From Sarea resinae (taxonomy: Eukaryota), in assembly GCA_026026165.1 (NCBI GenBank), contig JAPEUD010000026.1, positions 62,001-126,000 on the forward strand: 64,000 bases of DNA, written 5' to 3'. Shown here one piece after another: positions 13,523 through 41,288 of this stretch (position 1 is the first letter of the stretch; each line of letters opens with the position of its first letter). The notes beneath the pieces were generated by a model. The model did not search any database. It was given only the letters and a program-made list of their open reading frames with translations, and was not told the DNA's origin. Made by a program: the position numbers and the translations under genes.

Positions 13523-13529
13523 TTACTTC

Positions 13530-14140
13530 GTTGTATCGATGCGACTTTAAGGTAGATTCTAATGTGTCTAGTCTTATAAAGATAGACATCATTGAGTCAG
13601 TATTGACTTATTCCTAGATAGCTTATATCTTATATCACGATAGGGTAGATTACTATACTCTTGCTTTCTTATATAGCTAGAACATCTAGAATGAAAACTT
13701 TTCTTAGAGGGTTTAATATCTTTAGTGGATATATTAGGATAGATATGTAAACTCTAAGGTAGTAAATAGGCAAATTTGTTCCTATAGGCGCTGAAAAGAC
13801 AACTACCTAAGGTATGATCTGGCTTGTCTAGGTCATACCTATTTGCCTACTAGGTATAAAGCGCAGCGCTCTTTACAGCTTCTTAAATCCATATTATTAC
13901 TAACATACCTATATCAATATACTTACTACGCATTAGGTGATTTACTACTAGATAGTCTATTATTTCTGGTAGAAGCCTTTTTGGAAAACAAGAGTAAAGT
14001 ATGATGATAATATTCTTGAGGAAATTAATATACAGTACTATAGTGAATAACGTAAATAGAGGTAGAGTAGTTCCGAGGTACCTAGTACTTTGTAGCCACT
14101 CGACTAAGAGAAGATGGTGGCTACTCCTGCCGCTGTACAC
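13530..14140. repeat. Small RIP-mutated relic of unknown origin
   Basis: Local switch to AT-rich, TpA-rich sequence (e.g. CCTAGATAGCTTATATCTTATATC) between two normal-composition genes. Confidence 0.5.
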
Positions 14141-15207
14141 CCGGTGTATCTAAGAGTCACGTACGTCGCGCTACTGTGCACAATAATCTACCTAAGAGTA
14201 CCGTACCGGAGACACACCAGACACCGCTAAAGTCTCTATAAGGGATAGAAGGTAGGTACCTACCTATCTATCGATCTTTGAGTAGGCTCTTCTCCGGAGT
14301 ACCCAGCTTGCAACCGTTCTAACTGCTAGAGGAATGATCGTGGGTACCCTGCATTAGGTCCCAGGGGTCTTCCCACGAGAGTCTCTGGCGGGGAGACAGA
14401 GTGACAGGACAAGCTCTATTGCTAACGAGGTCTCCTAATGGACAACGGTGGTGCCCGGTCTACGGAGTACGGTACCTTGTATGATATTCATGTACGGAGT
14501 AAGGCGCCGAGTACCAATACTTCTTCGTACGTGTCGGGTACCTTTAGTACCTATGATTCAAGGCTTGGTGCCTCTTAGGCTCCATTCCAGAAGCAAAGGA
14601 AGGAAACTACGATTGCTTGCACCTGCATCTAGAAGCAGTCCCTTGTCGTCCGTTTACTTACGAGTACGTTCCCTGCCATGGTACTTCTACCGCGACAGGA
14701 TCTACTCTACTCGTCGAGTGCCTTATGGACTGGAGGTGAGCTGGTACGATTAAACACAGAGCTGCGGGCAAGATCTCCAGCGATTCTTTCGATTCTTTAG
14801 AGCATCTCGTGAAATGCTCGGATACCGTAATCTTTCTGCTCGAGGTGGTGCCGTCAGGTAAGGTGGGTAGGTATGTAGAAGACGTTGCTACTTCTGCCTT
14901 CGGAGACGGGAACTTCAAGAGCTGTTCCGCTTCGCGGCACCCCACTACCTACCTACCTACTACTTACTCACCTACCACCTACCTACTTCATACGGCGCCA
15001 CTTTCCTACGCCTCTTTACCTGCGAAGTCGCGCTATCTCTCATCTGCTTCAATCCTTTCACGACACCTTTACTCCTTTCTTGCTTCTTGCTACTATGTTC
15101 AAGATATCAATAGAGGTATAACGTTGGCACTGCGGTCTTGGAGTTTCCTTCTCGTTCACTCTTGAACTTCTCCGGAAGTGGACGTCGCTTCCTCCGCGGC
15201 CACCACG

Positions 15208-21152: not shown

Positions 21153-21360
21153 ATAGCAATATAATACAAAAGCTATTTCTAACATTCTCAGATCCTAATT
21201 TTATTAGCAAGGATAGAATCTGCCCTAACAGCTTCTAGAGGCCCTAGGAGGCTATAATAGCCTGTAAAGCCTATATTTCTTGCCTCATATAGGATCGTTT
21301 ATTCTATAGAGCTAATAAGCTTATAATAGCTATAGCAGACTCTATATTAGCAAAAAAGTG

Positions 21361-21761
21361 TGTTAAGAATTATAACCTTGATTCTAGTCAATCTTAAGTA
21401 TCTAGACTGTTACAGACTGTTATAGGACAGGATAGATACATCTAGAAGCTTCTACACACCTATAGAAGCTAATAGAATGTACTTGTAGACCCCTATAGAA
21501 TCTTATAGAACTTATATAACATAAGAGTTATATAACTATCCTCTGACTTTCTTACAAAGCATATGTTATTATTAGTTTATTGCTTACAAATCACTTATGT
21601 AATTAGTTATCACTAGAAGTTTCTAGTAGGTTAGTTAAGCCTATATATTGACTGCCTCACACCTTTATAGCTAAAACCTCTAAGTTAATAATATACAATT
21701 ATTCTATCCTATACTTCTTTAGCACCTTCCTCTACCTATATCTATGTGCTACCTTCTAACA
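21361..21761 (+). repeat. 5' LTR of Ty1/Copia element
   Basis: Starts TGTTAAGAA and ends TTCTAACA (short inverted termini). Immediately followed by GGTTATAAGCC, the RIP form of the fungal Copia primer-binding site GGTTATGAGCC. Its last ~70 bp recur at 41289-41360. Confidence 0.75.
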
Positions 21762-22469
21762 GGTTATAAGCCTTGTTAGCCTGCTAAAGAAGCCTCTCCT
21801 CCTATAATTTCGTGATTTTTTCACCTATAGCCACTAAAATTCCTTTGAAAAAGAGTTAACTTCCTCTCTTTCACCTAAAAAGACTAGGTCCTATACCTAG
21901 TAGTCTTTATAGTCCCTAGCTAGTTAATTATATAGCTTCTTAGAGACTATATAACTTAACTTACAGATAAGAACTACTTAGAGTAGACTGCTTAAACTAA
22001 GCCTATACTAATAGACATTGTATATACACACACTTAATAAGGATTTTCCTAATCCTTTCTGCTACCTTATAGGTATAATCCTCTTTAAAGAGAAACACCT
22101 ATAGGAGAGCAAGTTACATGCTTAATGTATGCTGCCTTTACCTAGATCCTATAGTACCTATAGCTTGTGTCTATAGAACTATAGCATAGCAGCTTGTGTT
22201 CTGCAAAGCAGCCTTTGTGCCGCAATTTTACGCACCTATAGAACTGTAACAGTTTAAAAGTCACAAAACAGCCTTTGTGTTTACCTTTTATACATCTATA
22301 AAACTTATAACAATAGTGCAAAAGCATAAGACACTCTTTATACAGCTGTTTCACACATCTATAGAAACTTCTATAGGTGTATAAAAGTTATACTAGTGTG
22401 ATTCTACTACTTGCAGTAGAATAAACTTAATAGCTAGTAGTCTATTTCTTTGAAATCAAGTAAGAGACT

Positions 22470-22847
22470 AGTAATTATAGCTATATCTAATCCTATATAT
22501 AAGACTAAGCTATAAGGCAGCTCTAACTAGGATTTATAGTCTATAAGGATAGAATCCCTGCTTATAGAGAAGGGCTATTTTAAAGTTATGTCTAAAGACT
22601 CTAATAATAGTATAGATTTAGATTCAGACTATTTTAGGGCAAAATCTGCAAAAGCTCTAGCCTATATTAGGCTTGCCCTAGCAGATAGCCTACTATTACA
22701 GACTAGATATTATATTAGTAGATCTATAAAAATTGTAGGCTAGTCTGTAATATCTCTATGAATCTAAGGGATTTAATTCTAAATTCCTAATTTAGAGAGA
22801 GTTGTTTAGTACAACACTTAAAAAATATAAGGATCTAAGAGACTATT
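22470..22847 (+). pseudogene. Copia gag N-terminal part (RIP-inactivated)
   Basis: Reads KL*GSSN*DL*SIRIESLLIEKGY...AKALAYIRLALADSLLLQTR...LYESKGFNSKFLI*RELFSTTL; de-RIP approximates KLQGSSNWDLWSIRMES...GPLLQ...GFSSEFL, typical of fungal Copia gag. Confidence 0.75.
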
Positions 22848-23399
22848 TAAGTGCCTCTAGGACTATTTCTAACACAGTTATAAGACAGTCTTAACATTGT
22901 AACAGTGTGTTTAAAACCTTTTATAAGTGTTTGTAGAGTAGCTGCTCTAACTAGATTTATTAATCTAATAGTTTTGCAGATAAGGCTTATAGACTAGATA
23001 AGGCTAGTCTAGTAACCTATTAACTAATAGTGTGTTAGTAGAATAATAACTAACCTAACTTAAGTAATCTATTATAATCTAATATATGACTAGAGGTCTA
23101 TAGATACTAATTAAATAATATATAGCTATAGCACTTTAGGTAATAATAAAAGGTAATAATAAAAGTAAGAGAAATATAAGATAATAGAAGTAATAGTAAT
23201 AAGGTTACTTTTCTACTATATAGTAGATAGTGTATTCTAATAGAAATATAGATACAATCTTAATAGTAGCTAGATCTAAATTATATAAGAGGCCTACTTA
23301 ACTAGAATTAGTATCTTATCTATTTATATCTAGTGTAGTCTTCTAACTACTTAAGAACCTAATTTATCCTTTAATAAGCTTAGGTTATATAAAGAGTTA

Positions 23400-24580
23400 T
23401 AATTTTTAGAGATAGTAGCACTATATTAGCGTTCCTTACCTTAATGTTTTTTAAGTAGGCTTAGGCTGCCTTTACTTACTACTATCTTCTCTCTTACTAA
23501 TATAGCAATTCTTAGTAACCTTACTATTATAATTTTTACTATTAAAGGTATTCCTTATCTTATTAGCACTTATATCTTTTATTAGACTTTGTTATAAGAG
23601 GATATAGCGTTTATAGTAGCAAATTATTATTAGGCTCTAAATTGTATTAGAGTTTAAGTTGCTTTAGTAATAGTAAATAATATTGCATGTAATATTAAAG
23701 CATTACTTAACTCTAACTGCTAAGACTAGAGCTACTAGAATATCTCTTACTACTTACTTAATAGTTAGGAGTTTAACTATAAAGTGTTACTAGAACTAAT
23801 TCTAAGTTAGTAAGTTTAAAGCGTTATAATATTTTATTACTTACTTTAAGTAGTGTTTAATAAGTAGTAGAGAAGATAGGTATAGAAAGGTATCTTATAG
23901 CCTTAGTAAGTTTTCTATTCTATACTATAGACTTCTACTAATCTATAAAAGCAAGTGAATTAAAGGTTAGATAAAGAGGTATTAGTATTAGAGTAATATA
24001 TAGAGTGCTACTCTTAAATTTCTAGTAGTTAGCTCTATAATACTATAGAAACTATTACTAATACTTCTTTATATAAGTTGCGCTCTAGTCTAGACTTTAG
24101 AAGAGTAGAAGAGAGAAGTTAGTAATATTACTATAAGTGTTATAAGATAGTATTACTTTATATATATTAAGTTTTTACTTTAGGTCTAGAATATAGGTAA
24201 GACTATATAGCTCTTTACTACTATCTGTTGTTATACTATAGTATTTGCTTAGGTAAGATAGTAAAGCCTTAATTACTTTACTAAGGCTTTATTTCTATAG
24301 AATATCTTTCTTTAAAAGCTAAGCCTTTTAAGACTTAAAGTAATTAAAGAGTTTTCTATATATAAACTAAGTAAGATAAATTATAACTCTACTAGTTATA
24401 GAAAAGGCTTTAGTCTACACTTTAAATAATTGTAGAATAGTAATTAGATATTCTACTTACTTCTACTTAGTATTATTTAATTAAAGTTTTTTAGTGATCT
24501 AAGATAATTCTTTGCTTTAAACTAGCTTATTAATTGCATATTATAGTACTAAAGCATAGGTAAGCATATTAAATGTTAAG
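23400..24580 (-). pseudogene. hAT transposase C-terminal fragment with dimerization domain (RIP-inactivated)
   Basis: Minus strand ~23630-23810 reads F**HF...VVRDILVALVLAVRVK*CFNITCNIIYYY*SNLNSNTI*SLII, approximately ARDILAVPVSAVGVERCFNIARDIIHYRRSNLNPDTIRSLM (hAT C-terminal dimerization motif). Confidence 0.8.
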
Positions 24581-24949
24581 TTCTATTAGTAAAAAAAGAA
24601 GAGGTCTATATAGATATAGTGTAGATATATAGTATATAGTACTAGTTCTATATAGATAGTAGTGCTACAGTATATCTACAGCGTTATATAGCGATATTAT
24701 AGTATATATACTTGTCTACTAGTAGATATAAAGGTAAATACATCTCTATATAGATATATATTGTCTTCTATATACTTATTATTAGGTTATATATAGTAGA
24801 TACTTATTATAATATCTCTATAGAACTTATATATACTATCTGTACTATATAGTGTCTACTAACAGCTATATAATATTAGGCAGTTGATTTTGTACTACAT
24901 AAGCTACATAAGCTATATAAGCTACACTAGAACTTCTATTAACTTCTGA

Positions 24950-27900
24950 AATCTATTTAGTAAAGTATGTTTTCTAGTTAATATATTTGTTTACTAAGAA
25001 ACGTTCTTTATAATCTAAGCTGTTAGAAGGTATCTTAATTATATAACTTAGCCCTATTATATCTTTAACGTGTATAATACACTCCTTATTAGTTATTAGA
25101 TAGCCTTTACTATAAGTAGCTATGTTATCTAACCTTTTAACAATAGATAGACAATATATTATATTCTAACTCTCTAGTTATTTAGCTTATACCTAAGTGA
25201 TTAAAGCTAGTAATATTAGAGCAAACTCTAGCATAGTAAGACTAAATAGAAATTAATATTAAGCTAATAGATAGGTGCTAACTAGCGCCTATCTATTAGC
25301 TATACTATGTCTCTCTAGATAGTATATATTGTCTTTTACCTAAACCTAATTGTTTCTCCTACTTACACTCTGCTATAATGTTGTATATTAGATAGTCAAC
25401 TCTAATATATCCTTATAGTTGTTATTTGCCTCTTAGAAACACATTGTAGAAGATGCTCTATCTATAAGCTAGCTACTTATATATAAGTTTAATGTCTGCT
25501 AGTTAATATTTAGCTAACTGTATTTGCTAAACAACGTTTTAACAAACATTAGCAAGGCGATTGTAAAGTCTAGTAGACCTAGTTTCATAATTTGTTCTAA
25601 TAATTGCAATAGATATCTATTAAAACCTTTAAAGATAGGCAATCTAGTATTTAATGTCTGTACTATATTAGGAGATAACAGCCTCTCTATAGCTATCTTA
25701 CACGCCTTAAAATAGAAACGTTAGTTATAGTATTTTAATATCTATAGAGTAGTATGTTAATAATTTAATACTTGCTAGCCTAACTTTATTGTTGTTTAGT
25801 AGAGAGCCTCTAAACAGTTAGTAGAGAAGCTATAAAGAGACCTAAATTATCTGATTATAGATATATAGTGACTAATAATATGTATCTTAGAGAAGTTAAA
25901 ATATGCATCTGCTTTTAGAGCCTCTTCTCTTATACAATCTCTTAGCTACTATATACTGTCTTCTCTTCTCTAACCCTTATTAGAATATGCACTATGTTTT
26001 TGCTTTTGCTTTCTATTAGCTGTTAGCTAAGAAGCTCTTTGTAAAGCTCTTTATAACGCTGCAGTATGTGCTGTTTAGGATGCTAAGCGCGCTATAGCTA
26101 CTGTTCCTTTATTAGTATAAAATCTCTAGAAAATAGCTTTGTGTTTATAGAAGACACCTAGTAGAAAGTCTATACACTTAAGGGTTTTATTGTTATAAGT
26201 ATACAGTTATATAAAGAAGATAAAGTTAATAAAGGACTGTATATATGTTATTGCTTGCTTAAAATCCTAGTGCTGTTATACAGATAGATTCGCTAATAAT
26301 ATAGCTGTAATAAGGACTAGGAATTTCACTACATTCTGCATTTCTTTCTTTTACTACTATAATATCTAGAGATAGGTCTTAGTTAGCAGACTAAAAATTA
26401 GATACACTAGTATTACAGTCTATAGAGAGTTAAAGGTATCTAATTATTTATATAGAAGTAGGAATGCTGCTAGCTAGTTTAGAAGGTGCTATAGCATACC
26501 TATATAAACTTAATACAGTAGATCTAGTTTTAGCAGATTGTAGACGTTAACACCTAGTAGAAACTAGAGGCTATTAAGTGTCTTTTTAACACCTTTCTAC
26601 TCTAGCATTTATATGTTACTCTCTTTTAGAAGTTGCTAGTAGTTTGCTAAGTCTCTTACTATCTAGTTATTATCTTCTAGACAACAACTAAAGTCAGCCT
26701 ATAGATATTTATATACTAGATAGTGGCCTTATATAATACTATATATTATAACAATCTCTTTATAGTTAGCTACCTACCTAGCAAGCTGTAGAAAACAATT
26801 CTAGGTATAACTATCTGTGTATAGTATCTGTATACTATCCTCTCCTAGCTTTTTAAGTGTCTAAAGAGCCTAATCTAGTCTATTATAGTATAGTTAATAA
26901 TAATAATTCTGCTCTTAAACGTTATTTGCTTTAATTCGCTTTAGATAAACTAGTAAGAGACCTAAGAGAATAGTCGCTTATAATAAAGGTTTAGCTTAAA
27001 GCGTGCTTAGTAAGTTACTAATTATAAGATATATTAGCTATATATGCTTGTCGCCTAAGAAATTAGTCAGATAAGTTTTATTAGATGCATAAATTACTAG
27101 GACTAGTGTTGAGTTTTTAGGCAGTGTATTCTAGTAGATAGTTAGCACTATATCTAATACTAGATAAGTGTAATTTGTATACCTAAGTCTGCTACTACTA
27201 ATTCCTAGTATATATATCTAAGTATAGTTAAGTATTCTATTCTCTATACAATTTTACAGGCAAATATACAAGCGCCTCTTTAAACTGTAGGTGTCTAAGT
27301 AGAAACAAAATACATCTTAAGAGATCTTTAAGATACATCTGTATCTTCTTATTATAATACTCTAAGAAAGATATTTCTTCCTATTCTCTACCTAGTGTTC
27401 TAAGTATAGTTAATATCCTATCTAATTTTTAACGCAGAGTATATACAGATTAGAAACTAGAGTAGTCTTATCCTATAATGTTGTTATTAAAGAACTTATT
27501 AATTGTAGTTAAAGTGATATTGTTCTATAGAAACTACTACACTAGTCTATAGTCTTTAGCAGTATTAAACAGCGCTTAAGATTAACTAAAGTATATGTTA
27601 TGTCTTTTATTTAATTGATTAGGCAATTTATATAGTTTGCCTGCTAATAGATAAGCTATTAACTAGATAGCTATAAGCTTTGCTAGCAATTGTATATATA
27701 GTGTAGTCTTATAAGCTACTCTATCTAATAACTAACTACTATTATAATCTAGTTAATCTTTAGCGTAGTTAATATTTGTCCTGCTATAGATATCTGCTAG
27801 AATGTCGCAGTTAGTGTAGCTATTAGTGTTGTTATTAATTGTAGAGCTAATATCTGCTGTTTTACCTTAGTGTCTGTTGCGTTTCTTAAACAACAGTAGA

Positions 27901-27974
27901 TTATAGCGTCTTATATATAAAGTCAACTGTAGAGAGTGCGTTGTATTATAACTACATATATAGCATTTTAACAT
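24950..27974 (-). pseudogene. Plavaka-family transposase (RIP-inactivated)
   Basis: N-terminal C2H2-like MLKCYIC...LTLYIRRY; FNTAKDYRLV**F; TLVLVIYASNKTYLTNFLGDKHI*LIYLIISNL at ~27020-27110 (de-RIP ASDKTHLTNFSGDKxAWPIYLTIGNL); YTDSYT*NCFLQLAR*VANYKE at ~26760-26830 (CxDGxxRxCFPxLAxWxADYxE); LKLDLLY*VYIGML*H at ~26490-26540 (KPDLLHQxYIGM). Confidence 0.88.
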
Positions 27975-28238
27975 TGTAATATCCTCTAGTAGTTGTTGCT
28001 ATACATGTAATAGTGTAGGTAATTGCTTTACACGTTATATTTATAGAGGTAAGTTTAAAAGTCTAAAGAGTGACTAAGTTATTAGTTAGGTGATATTAGT
28101 GTTAGTATATAAGCAACCTATACGTTTATACTAATGTAGGTAGATAAGGCAGTGATTTCTGTTTCTACATATATATTAATTAACACACACCTTTATATTA
28201 AGCTTATATTAGGATAGGACTTCCTAAGCACAATTATT

Positions 28239-30060
28239 ATGTCGCTCTTACCTAGAAAAAGCATAAACTCTAGCAGACCTATATAGTACTACTAATTCTA
28301 TAAGATTAGCACCTTACTAACTAGAGAGACTTAGTAGAGAAAAGCACCTTGTTAGCTAACTACTAGTAGCCTTTATTATCTACTCTCTAGTCCTTTAAAC
28401 TAACTGTCTAGGCAATCTAAACAATTGTCTTATTGTTAGTTGTTAGATGTATATTATACTCTTAATCTAATAAATAAAAGCAAGGTAGTATTACAACGTT
28501 ATATAAAACGCATTACAAGTTAGCATAAGATATATAACACTGTCTAAGTAAGAGCTAAACAAGTTAATAATTTAATTAGAGATATAATCTAGTAGGTAGA
28601 CTTCTCTTTAGCCCTAGCAGATTACTTTAGACAATAACTTTAAGAATAGGCAGATTGTTAGGAATACTTATACGTTGTTATCTAAGATTATTGTAAAAAG
28701 AAGCGAGATTAAGAGAAGAGAGAACGTAGTCCTCTTATAGCAGACAGTGATACAACTAATAATAATAATAGAGAAGGTAAAGATAATAGTAGTACACTAC
28801 TATCTACTAGCGCAGTAGAAATATTAACTTCTAGTATAAAGACTCTAACTAGTAAGTAATATCTAATACCTATTTAATATCTATATCCTTATATACTAGA
28901 TAGTTAAACGTTATATTATCTAGGATATATACTATAGAGAGAACGCCTTTAAATCCTAGATACATTCTCTTCTATCCTTTTTAATAGAATCTGTCTAATA
29001 AGTCGTTAGACGCTATATACCTAGCTATAAGATAGTTTAGATAGACTTAGACATTAACTACTAGACGTTTTAGATTAAATACAATAGTGAGCTAGAGTCT
29101 GCCTTTAAACTTTTTCTAGAAGAAACTATACGTTTAAAAATTATAAGTATAGCCTGTAACATAACACTATAACTATTTAATAACATATGTCTAGATAACT
29201 AGACTATCTTTACTTAAGAGATAATTGTCTACTAATTGTTATTATCTAGCATCTCTAAAGAGATATATGTCTGTATAAAACCTAATAAACAAACAGATTG
29301 CAGAAATTTACGATTTAGAAGAAGAGCAAGCAGATAGTATATCACTTAATTGTAGGATTAGACCTAAACTAATAACGTAGGACTCCTATCCTACTAAGTA
29401 CCTCTTATTACTAGCCCTAAATATGCAAGCAAAAGTAGTCTGCCTTAGAAGAGGCTATTATCTTGCTACCTAAGTAGTAGTAAGTAGATATACTATATAT
29501 GTCTATTAGATATTACTAAGAGATAACTGTTGTTATATATCAGACAAAATTCCTATCTGCTCTGCTAATAAGATTATATACACAGACAAATACAGTATAC
29601 TAGAAAGACTAAAGAGGTGCTCTTATTATTGTGTATTAGATAGTTTGATTAATTACAACAAGTATATCTAGCGTGATAATAAAAGCATCTCTATAACATG
29701 TAACTATAGTAAGACAGTAGGCGTTTAGCAGAAGCTTTCTCTAGTCCTTAGTAAAGAAACCTAATTGTCTACTGCACCTTCTTTAGAGGCAGTTATATAA
29801 CGTTCTATTATGTAAACTATATATTAGTGTCTGTTTTAGGTCTATTATATTATCTATATAACAAAAGTCGACTAATAGATAACACTATACACTAGTCTAA
29901 ATATCTAATTAGCTTTGCATAGTAGGTTAGCTACTCTAATTAGTGTTTAAGTGATTTAAAGACCTGCTTTAGCTAAAGATACAGATAAATTTACTAATAA
30001 ACTAGACTTAATTTGTATACAAATAAGATAATCTACTAATTGTATTAGTTATTAATCTGC
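28239..30060 (+). pseudogene. Plavaka cargo/accessory gene 2, unknown product, divergent from the transposase
   Basis: ATG at ~28239; long codon-like stretches whose stops are TAA/TAG; GT...AG intron-like segments (~28596-28649, ~28852-28900); no family recognised. Confidence 0.4.
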
Positions 30061-30649
30061 TCCTATATAGTACTATATACTCTAGTCTATTATTAAGGAC
30101 TACTATAGCACAATATTATAGTAAGGTACTCTTAAGTATATTTGTATATCTCTTAGTATGCTATTATACAGTAGCTATATAAATCTAAGTAGACTGTAAC
30201 TACCTACTACGTTATAGTCTAAGATATACCTAGGTAGGTACTATATCTACTACAGTACCTTACCTACTTAACTACCTACTATATAGTAGTACACTACTTA
30301 TCTATTGCATAATATAAGGTAGTGCCTCTAATGTGTGTTATATGTATATAGCAGCTATTAGCTAAAATACAGATTTTATATGTAGTGTTACTCTACTATT
30401 CTTACTCTACCTCTTTATTTAATATTAAAATGCTAGATATACTACAGTTAATACTCTATTATAAGACTCTATCTTAACATTATATTAGCAGACAGTTCAC
30501 TTAAGTAGTAGACTAACTATTAGACTTTTATCACTAAGTAGACACTATACAAGTAGTGCTGCTATTTATATTGCTTTAACCTTACTCCTACACTAATAGC
30601 TGTCTAAAACACAAGCAAACTATTATCTATATAATATATTGTATATTAG

Positions 30650-31195
30650 ATATAATATTAGTTAGAGGTGCAATGTTACGCACTAGATATACTAATAGTA
30701 TTAAGTGCTAATAGCTAGAAATAGTTGATAATAGCAACGTTTCTTTGTCTTCTTTCTTACACGTTATAATGTTATTATTCTTTGTTCTATTTAGTTAGAT
30801 CTCTATTCACTTTATATCTCTATTTACCTCTACTACTTTTATTCGCTGCTGCTACTCTTATTCACCTTGCACTGTGCTAACGTGTTATTTATCTAATATT
30901 AAAGCTATAAAACCCCTACTACCTAGTCTAGCCTGATTAAGAATTCCTACTAGATACAACCTTACTTTATTACTAATTTAGATAATTGTTCTATTAAGAT
31001 ATTAACTTTATCTCTAGCCTTATTAGCTCTCTACTTATATTCTCTTATGTTTTTATCTTTTAGCTTATTATATCTCTCTTAGTCTAGCAGCCTAATTATT
31101 CTTATTATACTAAACTTAAGTTTAGTGCTATACTTTTAGCCTTAATCACTTTCTACTTATTCTCTCTACTAGTTATCTCTCTACCTCTTAACATG
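30650..31195 (-). pseudogene. Plavaka cargo gene 3, coiled-coil-like small protein
   Basis: Minus strand is purine-rich and reads e.g. ERYNKLKDKNIREYK*RANKARDKVNILIEQLSKL, with an intron-like GTAAGG...TAG segment. Confidence 0.3.
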
Positions 31196-32464
31196 TTATA
31201 ACAATCTAGCTAAGTAAGCTACTCTCTTATTATACAACAGATATAACTAATAAGAGATATAATAGGATATAGTTTGTCGACTAGAATAAGAGATAGTTGT
31301 AAGACCTAATCCTTAAGTATAAGAACTTATAAAAGAGAAGCTATTAGAAGCGTACCTAAATCTAGGTGTTATATTAAACAAAGCTAAGACTAGATTATAA
31401 GAGGCTATCTAGTAAGTATTATCTAACTATAGCTGCACTAACCTTTAAGCAGCAGAAAATCATGCAGTTAACACTATAATAGAGGATGTAATACAGTCTA
31501 CTAACTTTCTAATGCTATCTGCAGACTAAATTAGAAGATAAGCTGCTAGATAGAGCTACAATTAAGAACACCTATTTATTATTGTGCAAGATATCTGTAA
31601 GAAGCTATAAGACAATATAAAGAAAGAACTGCAATCTAAAAGTAGAACCTTACTATTGCTCTTATCTAACACCTCTAGTACTTTAGCTACCCCTTGCTAG
31701 CTAGCTCTCTCTTAGTAGAAAGCTACTAAACAGACATTATAGCAGCTTATAGAGATATCTATAAGTAAGAGACATATAATTATATTAATTAAATAGCACT
31801 TACTAATAGCTAACAGACATTTAATATAACTCTAATACCCTTCTACCTAGTAGCCTTACTACTCTCTATACACTAATACCTTCTTATCTACTAACTATCT
31901 ATATAGCACCTCCTTCTATAAGACTACTAATAGGTAAGAGGTATATATGTTTATCTATTAACTAACATTTGCTAACAGTTAATAGACAACTAACTAGCTA
32001 AATAGTATATAACAATAGATAATAAGATAAGCACCTAACTTTTCCTACTGTTATCTCTAACTATAGATAGTATCTGTAATATTATTGCTAGGTTTATCCT
32101 ATAAGCAGCGATTATTAACAAGATTAAAACAAATATAGAGAGAGAGAAAATTAGATTAGAATACAATAAAGAGGTTGTACTAGTACTTAAGTTAGGCCTA
32201 TAACTAATTGTATTCTATATTGTAAGTGTCTCCTTATAAGAGTACATTGATTTCTAGTTGTTAACCTTATATAGGATGTAAAACGTAGAAACCTTAAGCA
32301 GGCTAGTAACAACTTAGTTTCTATACAGATAAGACCTAGACTAGGTATATACACTGTCTGCTATAAGGTATTATATCTAGTCCTAATATAGTTATTAACT
32401 GTCTAGTGCAACAGACTGTTTAATTATCTAACTAGAGACATATTATACAAACCTAAATGCAATA

Positions 32465-32895
32465 AAACTAAATACTACTTTACTCTCTACTACTAAGACT
32501 AGCTAACACCTACTAAAAGGTTAGTTGTTAGGCCTTGCAGCGAGTGTTAGCTAGTCTAGTAGCACACCTAAGTTGTTGTTACCTCTGCTATAGAAAACTT
32601 AATAACTGTCTAAGAGTTAGTTGCTAGGCTTATCTAAGAGTTAGTTACTAGACTTATCTAATAGTTAGTTACTAAGCTTATCTAATAGTTAGTTGCTAGG
32701 CTTATCTAAGAGTTAGTTGCTAGGCTTATCTACAAATAAATTGCTAGTTATAGATCTAAGACAGAGCTGTTTACTAATAACACTAAATACAACCTTACTC
32801 TCTACTACTAAGACTAGCTAACACCTACTAAAGAGTTAGTTGCTAGGCCTTATAGCAAGCGTTAGTTAGTCTAGTAGCACACCTAAGTTATTACT
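32465..32895 (+). repeat. Internal ~110-bp direct duplication enclosing about five 24-bp tandem units
   Basis: ACTAAATAC..TTACTCTCTACTACTAAGACTAGCTAACACCTACTAAA...AGCACACCTAAGTT at ~32468 and ~32782; GAGTTAGTTGCTAGGCTTATCTAA-type units at ~32614-32735. Confidence 0.85.
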
Positions 32896-33220
32896 ATATT
32901 AGCTAAAGGAAACACAACGTCTGTCACTAGTTCCTAAGCTAGGTCGCTATAACGTTAAGTGTAAGCTACTAGACTTAAACGCAGTACTATTTCTTATTAC
33001 TATAGAGCTAACTCTTTATAGACCTATCACTGCAAATTAAAGATAACATTTCTAATAAGCTTATATATAACCTAATAAGAGATAAGGCTAATAAAGAAGA
33101 CATTAATAGTAAGGATACTAATAAAGAGGACGTTAAGGATAAAGATAACAACAAAGATAACATTAATAACAATAATAGCAACAAAGATAACGTTAATAAC
33201 AAGGATTATCTACCTGTTAA

Positions 33221-33375
33221 AAACAATAATCTGCTGCCTAATAATCCTCTAAATAACAATCTGCTACCTAATAATCCTCTAAATAACAATCTGCTACCTA
33301 ATAATACTCTATATAATAATCTACTACCTAATAATACTCTATATAATAATCTGCTACCTAACAATTATCTATATA
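33221..33375 (+). repeat. 30-bp tandem repeat, about 5 units (acidic/proline-rich coding repeat before RIP)
   Basis: AATAACAATCTGCTACCTAATAATCCTCTA-type units; unit length is a multiple of 3, and de-RIP reading approximates DDDLPPDDPL. Confidence 0.85.
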
Positions 33376-33479
33376 GCACAGAACATTATCTGCCTAGTAA
33401 GTACTAGGATAATAAGTAACAACCTCTACTAACTTTTATCCTTACTTTATAGGCCTCTAAGACTTTAGTGCTTTTGCTA

Positions 33480-35760
33480 GCAGATAGTATAACGAATTAG
33501 AGAGAGTAGATAACCTAATTAAGAGAATAAACCTAGTGATAGCGAAACGCTAAACAGTTATTTAAAATAGTCTAGCAATTTAACATAACACACTCTAAAT
33601 ATAGAAGGATATAACAGCTATATTCTTTATTCCTAAACACACTGTATTAACAACCTAAATACCTATAAAGCTACTGTTTCTTTAAGCACCTATTTAACTA
33701 CTACTATATTAAGCTACAGCTATTATGTTTATATTACGCAATAAAAGCAACAGAATTAGAGAGGGGTTTTTAGCAGATAGGATAGGGTTTAGAAAGGTGC
33801 GTGTCTATTATAGTGTCTCTTTAATATGTACTTAAATTAATAGCTAACGCTTAATCTACTAGCAGACACTAATAACGTTAGCTTTTATTACTACTTTATA
33901 GACCTTATACTATAATCACTTAGATATAATAAAGAGTTAGCAAATCTATAACAAAAGATATCTAAGGGCTAGTAGTAGGTATTATCTGCATAAGACTTTA
34001 AATATTATATGATATTTTACTTACACTTGTGTTTATTAGACAATATAGATAACAATACTAAATGCAGCGTTAAGTGTCCTAGTAACAACCCTTATAAGAT
34101 ATAATGCCTGTGTTAACTAGGATCTATAACCTCTTAAATCACTATAGATAAGAGAGCAAATATAGTTATATGCCTAGCATATCTTACCTGTATATAGGTG
34201 ATAGAATACTAAAAGTTGTTCACTATATAATAGATTGCTAAGAACCTAATAGTTCTTAAGCACAGCTAATAGAAACATAAGTTTACAGACTTAATAGAAA
34301 CAGACTCTAGTAGCAAACATATAAGATTAAATGTTATCCTAGTGACATTGTTTAAGTGTTTGCAACTTTGCTGCAATTTATAGGCAGAAACTTAATTTTA
34401 GCAGATAGTAGTAGACAAGGCGCATATTATTAAATTAAAGAACACTAACCTAATCTAAGACCTAACTACCTTAAGACAAAGCTATAAGGAACACTAGCCT
34501 ATAATGTAGTTCCTCTCTAGCACTCTATTTGTTATGCCTAGAGACTTAAGAGAGAAGGTAAACATTCTTATATATACCTAATAGATAACTAATCTCTCTT
34601 GCGTTAGATAAAAATGCTTGCCTAAAAAGTTAGACTTTATTAAAAGTTAGTACAAAAATCTATTTAATTGTATAGCAAAACCTAACAGACTATGACTGCC
34701 TTCTACTAATAAAGACTTTAATTAATATGCCTAGAATTTTGTTAGCTTCCTTAGTGTGCTAATAATCTAATAGGATAAAAATGTAGTTAACCTAGATAGC
34801 TACCTGCTAATTAACCTCCTGCTATTCTACAGATATAAATTGTTAGTCTAGTTTAGTAATAACTGCTAGAAGACAGTATATAAACAACAGCAAGCTATTA
34901 TAGTAGTAAGAACAAACTAAATTCTAGAGTTAAATAAAGGATAATGTATTACTTTAATAATATATTTCTAATACGTATAGCGACTACAAATTATCTTTTT
35001 ATTCCTAGGCCTTGCCTACTCTAATCTAGCTAGGTTAGACTAGAGCTTATTAAGCGTTAGGTCTATAGCTACTAAGGATTAGGAATTATATCTGTTATAT
35101 AACAATCTAAAAATACTTAGCTAGTTATCCTCTAAATTAAAAGTACTAGATAATCTTATTAATAATATAGGAGTGAATTTAAGGATAGAGAGTGAAAAGA
35201 TAGTTATCTTTATTGTATTCCTAATTACAGCCTTTATTATTGCAATAGTAAGTAGCATTTGTCTACTAGATAACACACTTAAGCTAATAGTAGATATATA
35301 GTAGATAAAATATGTTAGATACAAGCTAGTTACTCTATTCTATAGCGGAATCTCTATAGCAAAGCGCTTAAGGTTAGTAGAACAATTCTAAGGCACTATA
35401 GATATATTCTCTAGCTTAGAACCTTTTTACTTAGTTAGGACAATAGGTATAATATCACTAGGCTTAACCTTAATTCGCGCAAATCTAGTAGTTGTCTTTA
35501 AATCTAATTATATAGACACTCTTAAGTAATAAGCACTTAATAGTGTTCACTATATTAGCTAGTGTAGCAAGGTAAGTTTATATTGATTTATTAACACTAA
35601 GTCTGCAATTAAGAATACACTTATAGCTACTTAGAGGTTAAGAGGTATCCTAAATAACATAGCCTTAAAGAAGAATAATCTGCTAGTTCTGCTACAAGTT
35701 AAAGTTAAGATTAGCAGTAAAGATAATATAGATACTAAAGATAACAACCTCTACTATTAA
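33480..35760 (+). pseudogene. SNF2/SWI2-family ATPase carried inside the Plavaka element (RIP-inactivated); N-terminus may extend to ~31460
   Basis: Motif I RGFLADRIGFRK (~33760-33800, GGFLADGMGFGK, then a GTGCGT intron); Ia ICLAYLTCI*VIE (~34170, ICPAHL..W..E); II *QIVVDKAHIIK (~34400-34435, WxIVVDEAH); III M*FLSSTLF (~34503, WFLSGTPF); IV KIVIFIVF (~35197); V ISLGLTLIRANLVVVFK (~35455); VI **ALNSVHYIS* (~35527, QAxxRVHRIGQ). Confidence 0.85.
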
Positions 35761-35899
35761 CTCTACAATATATAAAGGAGATAAAGACAAATAGGACATG
35801 TAATAAACACAGCTAATATAAGTTTTTATTTGATTATAGGCGACTTTATAATACTAAGAGCAGCAGATATATATATCTGCTACTCTTAAGACTATTATC

Positions 35900-38575
35900 G
35901 CCTACTCTTCTACTATACTCTGTTCTAGCAGCCTAGTAAAGATTGCAGCAATAGTTAGTTCTAAACTATAAGTGTCTTCTAGATAACTTTAACAAGGTAT
36001 AGAAGCTAACATCTGCTAATCTACTTTAAGTTAGTCTCTTTTATTCTGTTTAGTGTTGTTTTAATTAGTCTAAGCATGCACAAATCTAAATTAATTATAT
36101 AAGTTGTCTTAATAGCAATATAATTGTCTGTTAATTTGCAAAGATATAATTTAAGTGATAATACTTATCTCTACTTAGACTAACAATTCTCTCTCTCTTT
36201 AAATTCCTATTTAACGCTAATATCTCCTACGCACTAAACTCTTAGCTATCTAAATCTGCTCTATATAGAGAAGCTAGTAACTTTTACAATGCCTTCTAAA
36301 TAACTCTAGACTTATTCCTAGCAAGATATTTAGTCTGCTAAGGAATAAAAACTCAACTACTTTACTAATAGTAACGCTTGTTTCTGTCTCTACTTATCTA
36401 ATCTATGCTAAACAAAGCAGTTGCCTTCTGTAATACTTGCACTTAATAAAAGACTACTACTAAAGGACTAAACATAGTTTAGATCTAGTAATTGCTACTA
36501 CTACTCCTTTAGTCTAAGAGCAACTATAGCTAATGTTATTAGATAGCAATAAAGAGAATTATAAGCAAGCTACAATGTCTCTAATATAAAGCCTACCTAG
36601 TTAGTTATCTAATGTTAGCGCTATATCTGCTGCTAAAAACACAGAAGATAGTAATAATTTACTTAATCTAATAACACAAAATACACCTACTTAGAGAAGA
36701 GGATATTAGTTAGACAGCACTAAGGGTCTAGAAAGTCAACTTATACTAGCAACTCTTAATAGCTAGATAAGTATACTAATAGATAAAGAAGTATCTAGAC
36801 GCAATTGTCTGCCTAGAAAGAATCTAAATAAATAAGAGTGTCTTTATATAATAAGAAGATAAATAACAAGCCTTAAGCTAAATTATATTAAAGTGAACTT
36901 AGTTAATTATAGAGAGAGTACACTAATAGGCAGACAATATATATCTAATAACACCTAGGCTACCTTATACTTAGTAGAATAGCAACAAATAAGTAGTAAA
37001 GTAAATTAAACTATAAGAGAATCACCTATAAGATTCTAAGATCTTCTAATAGATAGACGTCCTATATATAGGTCTACTACTAGTTAGAAGGCAGCAAAAC
37101 AAACTAACTAAAGAGATATCCTTTAGAAGCCTAACCTTTTTAACAGACAACTACTAGAAGAGCTTTATATATAGGATCTATTAATAAACACTTTCTAGAA
37201 CAAATTGTTAATACTACCTCTACTATTATTAGCAAGTCTTACTCTTAGAGTACTTGTTTTTAATTTTACTTATAGATAATAGGTTCTAAGTAATAACAAA
37301 GGACTCTTATTCTCTAGTCTCTATTCTAAAGCAGTTAGTATTAACTTAGACTCTACCTCTACACATGTTTTTAATAAGATAGATACACTAAGAACACTAC
37401 ACTAATTGTCTAGCACTCTATAGATGTTTATAAATAATTAGAGTGTAGGTTTAAGTCAGCTTTCTACACTAGATATAAGAGCATATATAAAGGTTTAAGC
37501 GTATTTAAAAGAGTGCTATCTGCGTTATAGGTATTAGGATATTTATCTAATAGCTAAGGCAATAATAAAAATATATGTTATTACTTAAGACTCTTTCCTA
37601 AAAAGCAATAATATAGCTACTATCTATACTAACACATAGGACTAGGCTTATACAAAGGCAAAGGCAATTAAGATAGAGCATTAATTTCCTTATCCTATTA
37701 AGGACTCTAGATAATACAAAATAGAGCTGCCTATATATATTAAACCTATAGTAAGTAAGACTATTAAGTGATATTTCTACTATCTACCTACTAACTCTAA
37801 ATAATTAAATCTTATTAGCTATTAATTAGAATAAGCTAGTAATAAAGATATATTATATTATAGTGTTATTAACTAGTAGTAGACCTATATAATCTGCCTC
37901 TTACTAAACTAGAACAACTTAAGAGGAAAGTAAGTTAACTATTAGATTAAGATAGTTTTAACTATTAAGATATATCTATCTATATATAAATCTCTTTACT
38001 TGTTTTAGTTATCTAATAGTTTTTAGAGAAGGAAAGAGAGATTATTCTACCTAGTAATTACATGTGTTATACTTAAAGAGTTCTTTAATAAAGTCTAGAA
38101 ACTAGCAAATATTAGTTATATATTAGATGCTTTTAAATAGATCACCTATTAGCTAATATATATTGTATCTACTACACTTTATTACACTCTCTCTAAATAG
38201 AAAGAAAGAAGCTTTACTTCTTAAGATTTTACTAAGGATAGTGTAAGTAGTAAGTAACTAGCTAGATATAATAGCTAATAGATAATATAACAGCTAACAA
38301 ACACCTAGAGGTCTACTAGCACTAGGTAGCTACTTAGAATTTTCTAAGCAGTTAGCAGCAAGAGGCTATCCTTCTACTAATAAAGAAAGCTATTAATAAT
38401 AGCAATACTTTAAATCTTAGAAAAGTCTACATTCTAATAGAAGGGTTCTGTAATAATAGAGGAGAGAATCTAGAGGATCTAGGCCTATTACTTAAAGAAC
38501 AAGTTAAATTACAAACCTAATTAGCTAGAGCAGATACTAAGTAGTATATTAATAGTTTACATTATTATTAACTAA
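35900..38575 (+). pseudogene. Plavaka cargo gene 5 (one or more genes), unknown product
   Basis: About 2.7 kb of codon-like, RIP-riddled sequence (e.g. LLALGSYLEFSKQLAARGYP at ~38315-38372) with intron-like segments; family not recognised by eye. Confidence 0.35.
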
Positions 38576-39136
38576 CTAACCTATTCTCCTAGTTAGTAGA
38601 TTCGCTGTATAATTAACACTATTTTTCGCACTATATAGACTCTATATAATAAGTTATCTATGCTATATAGTAGCTACTAAAATACATGTGTATTCTGTAT
38701 TTATTAGTAATACAGTAGGTGTCTACATGTATTTTATCTAATCTCTAGAGATTAGTAAGTATAACTACTAGAATCTACTATAGTCTACTAGTAGGTAAAA
38801 GAATAGTTATGTAGTTAACACTAATATATTGTGTAGAAGATATACAAAGTCAGTGTATTCTATATAGTACTACAGTAGCTGCTACCTAAACTACTATACA
38901 TGTAGCGCTATAGCGTTAACTGTTTGTAACATAGGTAACATAGGTTACACAGCGCACCTGTAGTCACTTGTAGCACACCTCTCTTTTTACTAATATATAT
39001 AAAATTCAAGCAGTCTTAAACCTAGAGTAATTATAGTAGGTTTAAGACTATTGTTACACTATCACCTAATCCTAACACAGTATCAAGGGTTTGTAACAGT
39101 CTTAAACTAGGTACAGAATTACCTAACCTAGCACTA

Positions 39137-40056
39137 AGGTTATTAGTATAGGTCTCTTTAGCAGTGATACTACCTCTATTATCTAGGATAAGGACATTTT
39201 TAGGGCTAAAGTTAGTAACTTTATAGCACTTGTTTATAATTGCCTCTAGAGATAGTAGGTAAACACTAAAGTTAAGGATGTATAGGACATCTCTAATATT
39301 AACTACCTAATTTGTTAGGGTAAATATTAGCTTAAAATCCTCTATACCTACTGCTATAGTAGAACTAGTAGTGTTACCCTACTTTATAGTAGTACTATAG
39401 GGTCTAAGATTGTTGAAAAGTTCTCCTCTATAGCAGATATATGTTGTTGCACCTAAGTTAAGAATCCACTCTATAACAGTGCATTTTAGCTTGAGTTTTA
39501 TACAGCTATAGAAAGCTTTAGGTGTAACAGTGCCTTTTTATAGCTTTATAACAGTACCTCGTAGGACTATACTTGTAACAGTGCATTCTAACACTAATTT
39601 AGGGCAGCTATAGGAATCTAAGCTTGTAACAGTGCATTTTAACACTGATTTAGGATATCTATAGAAATTAGAGCTTGTAGCTATAAAGCTCTTTTCCTCT
39701 TATAGTTCCTATGCTGTAGAAGAGTTAGTACTATGCTTTTTAGCATTAGGCTTATTACTCTTAGAGGTAAGAGCTACCTCTGTATCCTTGCTAGTGCTAT
39801 AACTATTAGCACTAGTGCTAGTGCTCTTAGAGACCTTAAACCTCTTAGAGTTATCTATTAGCTATGCAAAGACTTTCTCTAGGTTAATATCTTTGTCTTT
39901 ACTTTTATTAATTGTTTATATAATAATAGTAACTATATTACCTTTATAGTTACTAGTAAAGTTTTTTAGGTTCTATAGAGCTATAAATTTGTCAGGCAGA
40001 ATTAGTTCTCTAGCCCTTAGCTTATTATTTAGCTGCTTGATTTTCATAATATACCT
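39137..40056 (-). pseudogene. Copia gag C-terminal part and protease, inverted relative to the 5' LTR
   Basis: Minus strand YIMKIKQLNNKLRARELILPDKFIAL*NLKNL...VTIII*TI...DINLEKVFA*LID; EWILNLGATTYIC at ~39435-39474 (WILDSGATTHIC, Copia protease); RDVLYILNFSVYLLSL (DVLHIPDFGVNLLS). Confidence 0.85.
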
Positions 40057-41288
40057 TATAGCTAACTCTAGGATTTCTAACACAGTCTTACAACTGTTGT
40101 GACACCTAGTAGAACCCCCTATAGTGCGAAATTCCTAAACAGTGTTAAAACTATGTTGAGACTGTTACAATACCTACTATAGGTTGCAGGATTACTATTA
40201 GTCGCAGAATTACTATTAGTTGCAGAGGTTCAGAACTACCCTTAGTTGCGACTGACTTTTGCACACCTATAAAAGTTGCAGAAAAAAAAGTGGGAAAATT
40301 CAGAAAATTTAGCGAAAAAGTAAATTGACTACAGTGGGAATCGATCCTAGAAGCATTATGTAATCAATGATTGACATTACACTAACTAAGTTATATGACT
40401 TGTTAGAAAATCTAGCCCTAGAGTGCTATATAGCCTATAGAACCCATAATATTATTTTGATATAGAGATTTTCAAAATTTTAACCACCTATTGTAAGTGA
40501 GACGTTCGACTATTTTTGCGTATATTATGTAATTGCTTACATAATATTTGCAAAAATCGTTGAACGTCTCAAATATTTTTCAACTTTTACCTACTAGCAA
40601 GAAAATTATATTTATTTTTACTAAGTCAAAATTGTGTAGCAGAACTTCTAACCTATACACTGTTACAGACCTATAGGTGCACCTAATTAGGTTGCAACAT
40701 CTTATATAGGTTACAATGCCTTATATAGGTTCAAATCACTAGTAGGTTACAAGAATTTTAAACCCTTAGGCAGTATATATTCCTTGCCTAGTTGCAGAAC
40801 TTCTGAACCACGTACTGTTACAAACCTATAGGTGTACTAAAGCTGGTTGCAACACCCTATATTGGTTCTAATTAGTAGTAGGTTGCAAAAAATCAACAGG
40901 TTTCAAAAATTAGAAAAGTTTAGCACTATTCTAAAACCTATAGGATGTTTTACACACCTAGGCTAGCATATAGGTTAGATTGAACAGATTAGAGGCTGTA
41001 TTCACTAACCCTATGTGGGTTTCTAGAGTGAACAGATTATAGATATAAAATCTAATCTAGTAGTAAATTAGATTAAGTTTTCCTTAGCACTACTATATAT
41101 AATCTCACAGTTAATAGAAATATATATAAGTTAGTGTTATAGAATTTACACCTAGAAAAGGTTTAACACTGTTACAAGACCTAAAAAAAGTTTAACACTG
41201 TTACAACACCTATAGAAGGTTTTAGAACTATTAATACTGTTATACAACAGTCTTAAACTAGTCACAGGATATACTCTCTAGGCACCTA
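40057..41288. mobile_element. Non-autonomous ~1.2 kb element with hAT-like ends related to those at 22848/39136
   Basis: Left end CTCTAGGATTTCTAACACAGT resembles 22855-22878. Right end AACAGTCTTAAACTAGTCACAGG...CTAGGCACCTA resembles 39096-39136 and is an imperfect ~85-bp inverted copy of 22847-22932. Many ACACTGTTACA and GGTTGCA subterminal repeats; no ORF. Confidence 0.55.
40498..40571. repeat. Long hairpin: 35-bp arms, 4-nt loop
   Basis: TGAGACGTTCGACTATTTTTGCGTATATTATGTAA-TTGC-TTACATAATATTTGCAAAAATCGTTGAACGTCTCA; 4 mismatches between the arms. Confidence 0.9.

Follow-up and report, generated by a model that had tools for sequence, protein, structure and literature searches.

The helicase class of the AcademH and KolobokH transposons is RecQ-like, and the original Plavaka paper is reportedly that of Iyer et al. 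from 2014. PlavakaB transposons are defined by CATCA..TGATG ends and target duplications of 2-3 bp (Kojima, 2025, PMC12730594). Accessory genes described in other Plavakas include TET/JBP (PMC12730594) and, in red algae, methylase-SET and ParB-2OG oxygenase genes (bioRxiv 2025.02.11.637652). In the accessible portions of the PlavakaB paper, the main text holds no mention of SWI or ATPase and the supplement text none of SNF2, the supplement sequences being unannotated. Fusions between SNF2_N and transposon genes have been counted in general (bioRxiv 2021.11.30.470311). Here, a 64,000-nucleotide stretch of the Sarea resinae genome (the window) was analysed, in which positions 33485-35760 of the plus strand are recognised by their motifs as an SNF2 ATPase gene destroyed by repeat-induced point mutation (RIP). 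The gene is carried by a PlavakaB transposon, referred to as unit A.

The fungal window has ~50% GC and contains an AT-rich block at ~21.2-41.9 kb (24-34% GC), with an Alg9-like mannosyltransferase gene on one side and a SWIRM/amine-oxidase gene on the other. The TpA excess and the loss of CpA and CpG in this block are the signature of RIP. The Sarea resinae genome (25.5 Mb, 143 contigs, given below as C-numbers) was searched for further copies, and the window copy of unit A differs from seven others by 5026 transitions and 159 transversions, mainly at CpA and CpG sites. Among sequencing runs, one DNA run and no RNA run were listed as carrying matching sequence; in the contigs of the DNA run, transitions occupied 109 of 111 variant places, 40 of which were listed. 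A second, milder RIP-like patch lies at 13000-15000 of the window (TpA/ApT 1.15-1.9 at 43-49% GC). An ISWI gene occurs twice in the genome with identical scores (C11:16035-16709 and C118:16029-16703), and is probably an assembly duplicate.

Unit A was defined by mapping 40 genome stretches onto the window, and its features outside the ATPase gene are the following.

24584-38995, no strand assigned: unit A, a RIP-dead copy of a 14.4-kb PlavakaB-type DNA transposon with sharp boundaries shared among copies
24584-24599, plus strand: left terminal inverted repeat of 16 bp, CATCAGCAAAAAGGGA in the least-mutated left end (C71)
24960-27570, minus strand: Plavaka DDE transposase pseudogene, with PF18759 at 26480-27124 (E 2.2e-17, above cut-off) and a 5' end that may lie near 27900
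27900-32400, no strand assigned: internal stretch of ~4.5 kb without assigned gene, between transposase and ATPase
36500-38400 (limits approximate), plus strand: probable DUF6532-family gene, with a domain match at 38054-38251 and a frame signal
38980-38995, minus strand: right terminal inverted repeat, with the identical 16 bp where this end is least mutated (C108)

The assembled genome contains six full-length copies of unit A, all of them dead. Boundaries are identical and flanks different in C71, C64, C101, C2 and C57, with later insertions interrupting three copies, and partial copies occur in C108, C13 and C62. The inverted repeats begin CATCAGC, and the first 11 nt are identical to Plavaka-11_AB. 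CATCA..TGATG termini can be read directly at the left ends in C71 and C101 and the right ends in C64, C108 and C62, and are RIP-altered in the window copy. Furthermore, a 2-bp TA target duplication is present in all three copies with a comparable empty site (C71, C101 and C57), the empty sites being other repeats whose uninterrupted form occurs in the window. Unit A is thus a PlavakaB DNA transposon by its PF18759 transposase, termini and target duplication. The ATPase gene lies within these ends in all full-length copies, as the preliminary description anticipated in calling it transposon-borne. A canonical CACTA/EnSpm element, with CAC..GTG ends and a 3-bp duplication, was rejected because the ends are CATCA and the duplication is 2 bp. 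An 82-nt direct repeat at 21692/41291, considered as a possible LTR, belongs to the flanking nested repeats outside unit A. No clear array of subterminal repeats was found in unit A, where RIP weakens detection.

The copies in C64, C2 and the window have non-matching flanks, and since the two flanks of the window copy come from different repeats, the locus was rearranged after insertion. At the left junction (24578-24589), six bases are common to unit A and the continuing sequence of a second element, which suggests a microhomology deletion rather than a clean insertion. This second, roughly 7-kb element is represented in the window by pieces in opposite orientations (22934-24583 and 40959-41150); its copies in C108 and C115 are bordered by target duplications of ~9 bp, and it is Mutator-like by that sign. 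The bases 3' of the right end in nine unit A copies are TA in seven, CA in one and TG in one; as RIP turns CA and TG into TA, the target may originally have been a pyrimidine-purine step. Short repeated modules in many orientations, found on at least 20 contigs, occupy 21350-22850 and 40050-40960 of the window, and the unit A copies in C71, C101 and probably C64 are inserted into such modules, which hints at a nesting preference or a survival bias. Inserts interrupting unit A copies at C108:124068-132586 (8.5 kb, ~50% GC) and C57:340703-348078 (7.4 kb, ~40% GC) are, from their higher GC, younger and less mutated insertions. A strong coding-frame signal (up to 8.8 against a null 99% value of 4.5) on the minus strand at 39000-40050 falls in a multi-copy repeat outside unit A, and a near-perfect hairpin with 35-nt arms and a 4-nt loop lies at 40498-40571.

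Intact Plavakas cover 27569-24959 of the window by tblastn, and the H(3-4)H and the following E of the transposase align with them; of the C(2)C motif, the aligned stretch takes in just the first C. PF18759 has seven matches genome-wide, all inside the seven long copies of unit A. The DUF6532 domain (PF20149) was detected in the C64 copy at E 3.8e-4 and 20.8 bits, under the 24-bit cut-off, and a RIP-aware scan of the site (13.6 against a null maximum of 11.9, tied with two other places) adds little. Genome-wide searches for MULE families, for the DUF6532 family and with the C-terminal half of the transposase of L097, a metagenome locus described below, gave no match, and the loose first pass of these searches was defeated by RIP. 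A six-frame Pfam scan of the C64 stretch matching ~27650-31900 returned only TPR_8 (E 0.034). This weak match (28430-28510, plus strand) and a stop-poor frame at 29270-29700 (plus strand) suggest one more gene inside unit A.

The ATPase gene itself can be divided as follows; numbers with L denote metagenome loci and those with P proteins.

32461-32925, plus strand: a 24-nt repeat in tandem and a duplicated 150-nt repeat, which probably encode a low-complexity linker of the SNF2 protein
33012-33415, plus strand: acidic/proline low-complexity tract, a probable upstream part of the SNF2 gene, with an open frame and a weak splice donor
33485-33796, plus strand: SNF2 exon with the Q motif and motif I up to GK
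33797-33865, plus strand: intron within motif I, between GK and T, at a position common to L097, L091 and P0009
33866-33974, plus strand: SNF2 exon with the T of motif I and the start of a clade-specific insert
33975-34039, plus strand: predicted intron (GTAGG..TTAG), its splice ends kept in six of six copies, with no counterpart seen in relatives
34040-35247, plus strand: SNF2 main exon with the cysteine insert, motifs Ia, II and III, a RING-less helical linker and motif IV
35248-35301, plus strand: in-frame intron after motif IV (GTAAGT..CAG), at the position seen in L097, read through in P0006, P0008, P0009 and P0013
35302-35760, plus strand: SNF2 last exon with motifs V and VI; tblastn matches of intact last exons start at 35302

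The gene probably starts upstream of 33480, and its true stop is uncertain because RIP creates stops. Repeat-rich N-terminal linkers are present in the intact relatives P0002 and P0004, and the acidic tract has a purine/pyrimidine frame score of 7.8 (null 99% value 4.5), its junction to the next exon being uncertain. The predicted intron at 33975-34039 accounts for a change of frame. Positions 34027-35760 remain in one frame in six of six copies, each with 32-45 stops, 30 of them common to all six, and the stretch 33400-35800 has six full-coverage genome matches at 94-100% plus one interrupted copy. On the plus strand, motif I lies at 33764-33796 plus the T at 33866, Ia at 34156-34221, II at 34414-34425 and III at 34516-34527, followed by IV at ~35194-35225, V at ~35440-35480 and VI at 35530-35562; the cysteines of the insert are at 34075, 34105 and 34111. 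The motif-II glutamate codon is AAG (K) in all six copies and the motif-III glycine codon AGC (S), so that DEAH and SGTP in unit A are best taken as reconstructions, with E and G kept in no copy. The first arginine of motif VI has a transversion in the window copy only and not in the other five.

The SNF2 identity of this sequence was assessed with intact SNF2 proteins as reference. Across 47 columns conserved in at least 75% of 46 intact SNF2s, the window copy is identical at 22, a number that rises to 42 when columns explicable by C>T/G>A alone are added, in an alignment that included the window copy and so favoured matches; 5000 shuffles gave a mean of 9.2 and a maximum of 19. A RIP-aware profile of intact relatives scored 28.3 nats for the motif-I exon and 30.1 for the insert and Ia stretch (null maximum 15.0). 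The least-mutated copy (C64, with X at stops) gave 34 matches in the PDB, 33 of them SNF2-family (best E 0.0012), and six matches among 1.84 billion representative proteins, five with the Pfam SNF2-rel_dom and one a Helicase_C fragment. The preliminary description, which had read motifs I-VI in order, is therefore borne out, although the failure of HMM searches, which it had named as refuting, does occur on the dead copies: Pfam gave no match on the raw window copy with X at stops and only E 0.12 on C64, and SNF2-rel_dom scored above cut-off in five of the six nearest intact relatives. None of the 35 genome-wide PF00176 matches is a copy of unit A, and the N-terminal domains of intact relatives, sought in unit A by HMM and RIP-aware scans, stayed within the null. 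That description lacked the three introns, the cysteine insert and the element's identity.

The closest intact relatives form a clade with members in Chaenotheca gracillima, Sclerophora amabilis, Oculimacula yallundae, Aspergillus thermomutatus and metagenomes. A search for relatives returned eight proteins at 261 bits or more, followed by RING-type proteins at 124 or less. Trees were built from the ATPase core (469 columns), the 45-row tree leaving aside five of 50 rows as partial, redundant or poorly assembled. In this tree the dead copy falls in a clade of 17 rows (SH-aLRT 100), and in a 24-row tree in a 10-row clade (100/100) on a stem of 1.64. The Rad5/16-like group holding the clade is supported at 100/99, the 19 host SNF2 rows fall apart from the clade, and in these trees the ATPase does not group with the host Snf2, ISWI, Chd, Lsh, Ino80, Mot1 or Rad54 subfamilies. 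Three host PF00176 loci (C62, C126 and C24) and two poorly assembled rows stand outside the trees. The tree program warned about the dead copy, whose branch is long and of unusual composition, and the shared insert and introns provide support for the placement that is independent of this long-branch tree: a pattern search found the C-x(5-16)-C-x-C insert, which lies between I and Ia, in 15 of 18 clade sequences, and two intron positions are common to unit A and the clade.

A profile of the clade matched Rad5 best in the PDB (E 2.5e-23). Walker A and B and the motif VI arginines are kept in intact members, and the RING pattern matched none of 18 intact clade sequences (some partial) and seven of seven RING-labelled controls. 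When the intact P0003 was searched against the genome, the highest-ranking of 13 matches, at E 9e-8, was the RIP'd C64 copy, and the C62, C126 and C24 loci were absent; with a dead copy as best match, no intact host member was found. P0003 fell in generic SNF2 clusters of the ESM Atlas. Its AlphaFold model (6 sequences) was poor, with a mean pLDDT of 54 and lobe 1 not modelled reliably, and Foldseek with this model gave SNF2 lobe-2 matches that do not rank subfamilies. On sequence, the ATPase belongs to the Rad5/16-like group, as a distinct clade that lacks a RING.

A metagenome scan yielded 17 loci, 13 of them clade members and four weak partial matches; four loci were at least 8 kb, and the ORF scan of the long loci covered 59 of 113 long ORFs. 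L097 encodes Plavaka on the minus strand and SNF2 and DUF6532 (E 4.4e-10) on the plus strand, the order and orientation of unit A, and unlike unit A has a UPF1-like SF1 helicase gene adjoining the transposase. In L100/L101, which are one element, Plavaka lies 0.9 kb downstream of SNF2, and L100 reaches DUF6532 (E 0.0013). L091 (8.4 kb) lacks Plavaka and has a weak reverse-transcriptase match at its end. Plavaka therefore adjoins SNF2 in two of three independent long metagenome lineages. In addition, SNF2 M4579_006527 and Plavaka M4579_006529 of Chaenotheca gracillima have near-adjacent tags and a contig of 20,244 bp for both. Plavaka P0049 (ranked 75th of 90 in likeness to unit A) and SNF2 P0004 are both listed on 12,410-bp contigs, which is suggestive only. 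In a word-limited search, none of 89 Plavaka matches bore a locus tag neighbouring the Sclerophora, Aspergillus thermomutatus or Oculimacula members, and 57 pattern matches in viral contigs included none that was confirmed. Element ends were not found in the metagenome contigs of relatives, so co-mobility is seen only in unit A.

Clade members are ~24-41% identical to each other, and dN/dS among L093, L095 and L097 is 0.13-0.19 over ~458 codons, L097 alone being long enough to show linkage. The values of 0.28-0.46 among the dead copies were rejected as a sign of selection, being an artefact of transition-only change; decay is even across codon positions 1, 2 and 3 (0.155, 0.187 and 0.182). With Plavaka neighbours in three independent lineages, DUF6532 in two and this low dN/dS, the available sequences identify the ATPase as a long-kept accessory gene and not a recent capture, and intact fungal relatives with the same pairing indicate that this ascomycete Plavaka lineage appears to own a dedicated motor protein. 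The preliminary description had proposed a RING-less, divergent, element-specific clade and asked about transposon linkage, selection and descent from a single-copy host gene; the RING pattern counts, the separate branch, the Plavaka neighbours in L097, L100/L101 and Chaenotheca, the purifying selection in intact relatives and the distance from the host rows all agree with it. Two stand-alone genes resemble the N-terminal domains of clade SNF2s, namely L097:13131-14357 (E 1e-17 against L091, 5e-8 against P0002) and L101:661-1770 (by alignment only). They received no Pfam or Atlas name, the stand-alone N-terminal protein matching nothing in the ESM Atlas at 0.9 or above, and could possibly be DNA-targeting modules.

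We lean, with some reserve, towards a protein that clears other proteins from element or target DNA, and give equal weight to an anti-silencing role and to a role in the steps of transposition. The ATPase would serve the element as an ATP-driven translocase on double-stranded DNA, and as it has neither a RING nor a histone-mark reader, its action is most likely mechanical, pushing bound proteins off DNA. Under the first option, nucleosomes or silencing factors would be removed over the element, so that its genes are expressed and its ends become reachable. Under the second, proteins would be removed at the target site, as would the spent transposase complex after strand transfer. The N-terminal domains of the ATPase, its cysteine insert or a DUF6532 partner might provide the targeting, which is speculative. 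Rad5/16-like ancestry points to protein displacement, and the Rad5/16-like Rrp1 strips Rad51 from dsDNA and also alters nucleosome dynamics (PMC8266636, accessible text). Displacement of proteins would accordingly fit the ancestry better than the opening of heterochromatin put forward previously, the ATPase coming from the Rad5/16-like group and not from the Snf2/ISWI/Chd sliders or Lsh/DDM1. A chromatin role is plausible by analogy with the other Plavaka accessory genes. Many Plavakas are reported to have other accessory genes or none, and the ATPase is thus dispensable for Plavaka transposition generally. The copies of unit A were RIP'd despite carrying the gene, which gave these copies no protection. 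A stronger version, which we regard as possible but doubtful, is that transposase, transposon-specific SNF2 and DUF6532 form a core module of an ascomycete Plavaka lineage, in which the ATPase would be a self-targeted chromatin motor holding the element open and delaying silencing or homology-based defence.

The Rad5/16-like ancestry could also be read in terms of repair. In this alternative, Rad5-like activity at DNA junctions (fork reversal, branch migration and Rad51 control) favours sister-chromatid copying when the 14-20 kb gap left by excision is repaired, so that copy number rises and silencing is untouched. The SF1 helicase gene next to the L097 transposase agrees with it, as would the large gaps that large elements should leave. 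However, no RING is present, six clade members scanned gave no HIRAN match, unit A yielded no SF1 helicase and there is no direct tie to repair, and we consider this fairly unlikely. Quite improbable is a host-useful or hitch-hiking cargo, in which a patchily distributed fungal SNF2 family, under selection for what it does for the host rather than for the element, is picked up and spread by large Plavakas. The absence of a nearby Plavaka in L091, the unlike gene order of L097 and L100 and the reading of a RIP'd Stagonospora repeat with Rad5/SNF2-like helicases as an endogenous gene cluster (PMC3017866, accessible text) would suit such cargo, but three independent linked lineages besides unit A with members so divergent, a DUF6532 common to two lineages and the lack of a stand-alone host member in the Sarea resinae genome argue against it. 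A recent one-off capture of a housekeeping SNF2 from this fungus is very improbable, since the host-like introns, a possibly incomplete assembly and the C62, C126 and C24 loci and two poor rows outside the tree are outweighed by the grouping of the ATPase with its clade and with no host row, by the cysteine insert and two intron positions common to the clade, and by the best genome match of P0003, which is the RIP'd C64 copy and none of those three loci.

The clearing of proteins by a dedicated motor would differ from what known Plavaka accessory genes do, which is to modify DNA or histones, by adding mechanical protein displacement. If true, the self-targeted motor would mean that a eukaryotic DNA transposon brings its own remodeller. 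The question is directly testable in intact natural copies (Chaenotheca, L097 and L100). Furthermore, DUF6532, for which only a domain list was found in the literature, gains a context, and RIP'd 'helicase repeats' of fungi that were interpreted as duplicates of host genes may, these findings suggest, be Plavaka elements. The literature searched yielded no account of a Plavaka with an SNF2 gene, and an earlier mention is possible, for example of SWI2/SNF2 in the original Plavaka paper.

PlavakaB (Kojima, 2025, PMC12730594, accessible text) shares with unit A its CATCA..TGATG termini, 2-bp duplication and PF18759 transposase, but was described from Agaricomycotina with or without TET/JBP, whereas unit A has SNF2 and DUF6532 genes and resides in a fungus with active RIP. 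The giant Plavaka of red algae is likewise large and multi-gene (17-19 kb) with a conserved chromatin-type cassette, which consists of PAG1, methylase plus SET and ParB plus 2OG oxygenase; SNF2 is not named in the accessible text (bioRxiv 10.1101/2025.02.11.637652). The preliminary description compared the ATPase with VANDAL and Academ factors, a parallel that does not carry over to the element, which is CMCT/Plavaka and neither a Mutator-like VANDAL nor an Academ. VANDAL elements likewise encode an accessory protein that may counter silencing, but VANC binds tandem repeats in a sequence-specific manner and brings about hypomethylation (PMC5735166, accessible text), whereas unit A has a putative ATPase and its internal repeats are more likely coding. 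AcademH and KolobokH are likewise fungal DNA transposons with a superfamily-2 helicase-fold accessory gene (PMC10799480, accessible text); their transposase superfamily is another one, while unit A is a Plavaka with an SNF2-family SF2 protein. The Rad5/16-like translocases (Rad5, Rad16, Uls1/Rrp1, HLTF, SHPRH and TTF2) resemble the ATPase in tree placement, best PDB match and motif I-VI layout, and the unit A clade differs from them in its long separate stem, the lack of a RING, the cysteine insert between I and Ia, DEFH in most members and its multi-copy, transposon-borne state. The nearest printed case is X3X3R8 of Stagonospora nodorum, likewise a RIP-degraded multi-copy repeat with Rad5/SNF2-like helicase genes, which was read as an endogenous cluster of host genes with a ubiquitin-conjugating enzyme; its accessible account describes neither transposase nor ends, and the likeness drawn here is by description only (PMC3017866). 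The contribution of unit A lies in an ATPase gene enclosed by both element ends and by target duplications, and in the undescribed branch of SNF2 that this ATPase represents.
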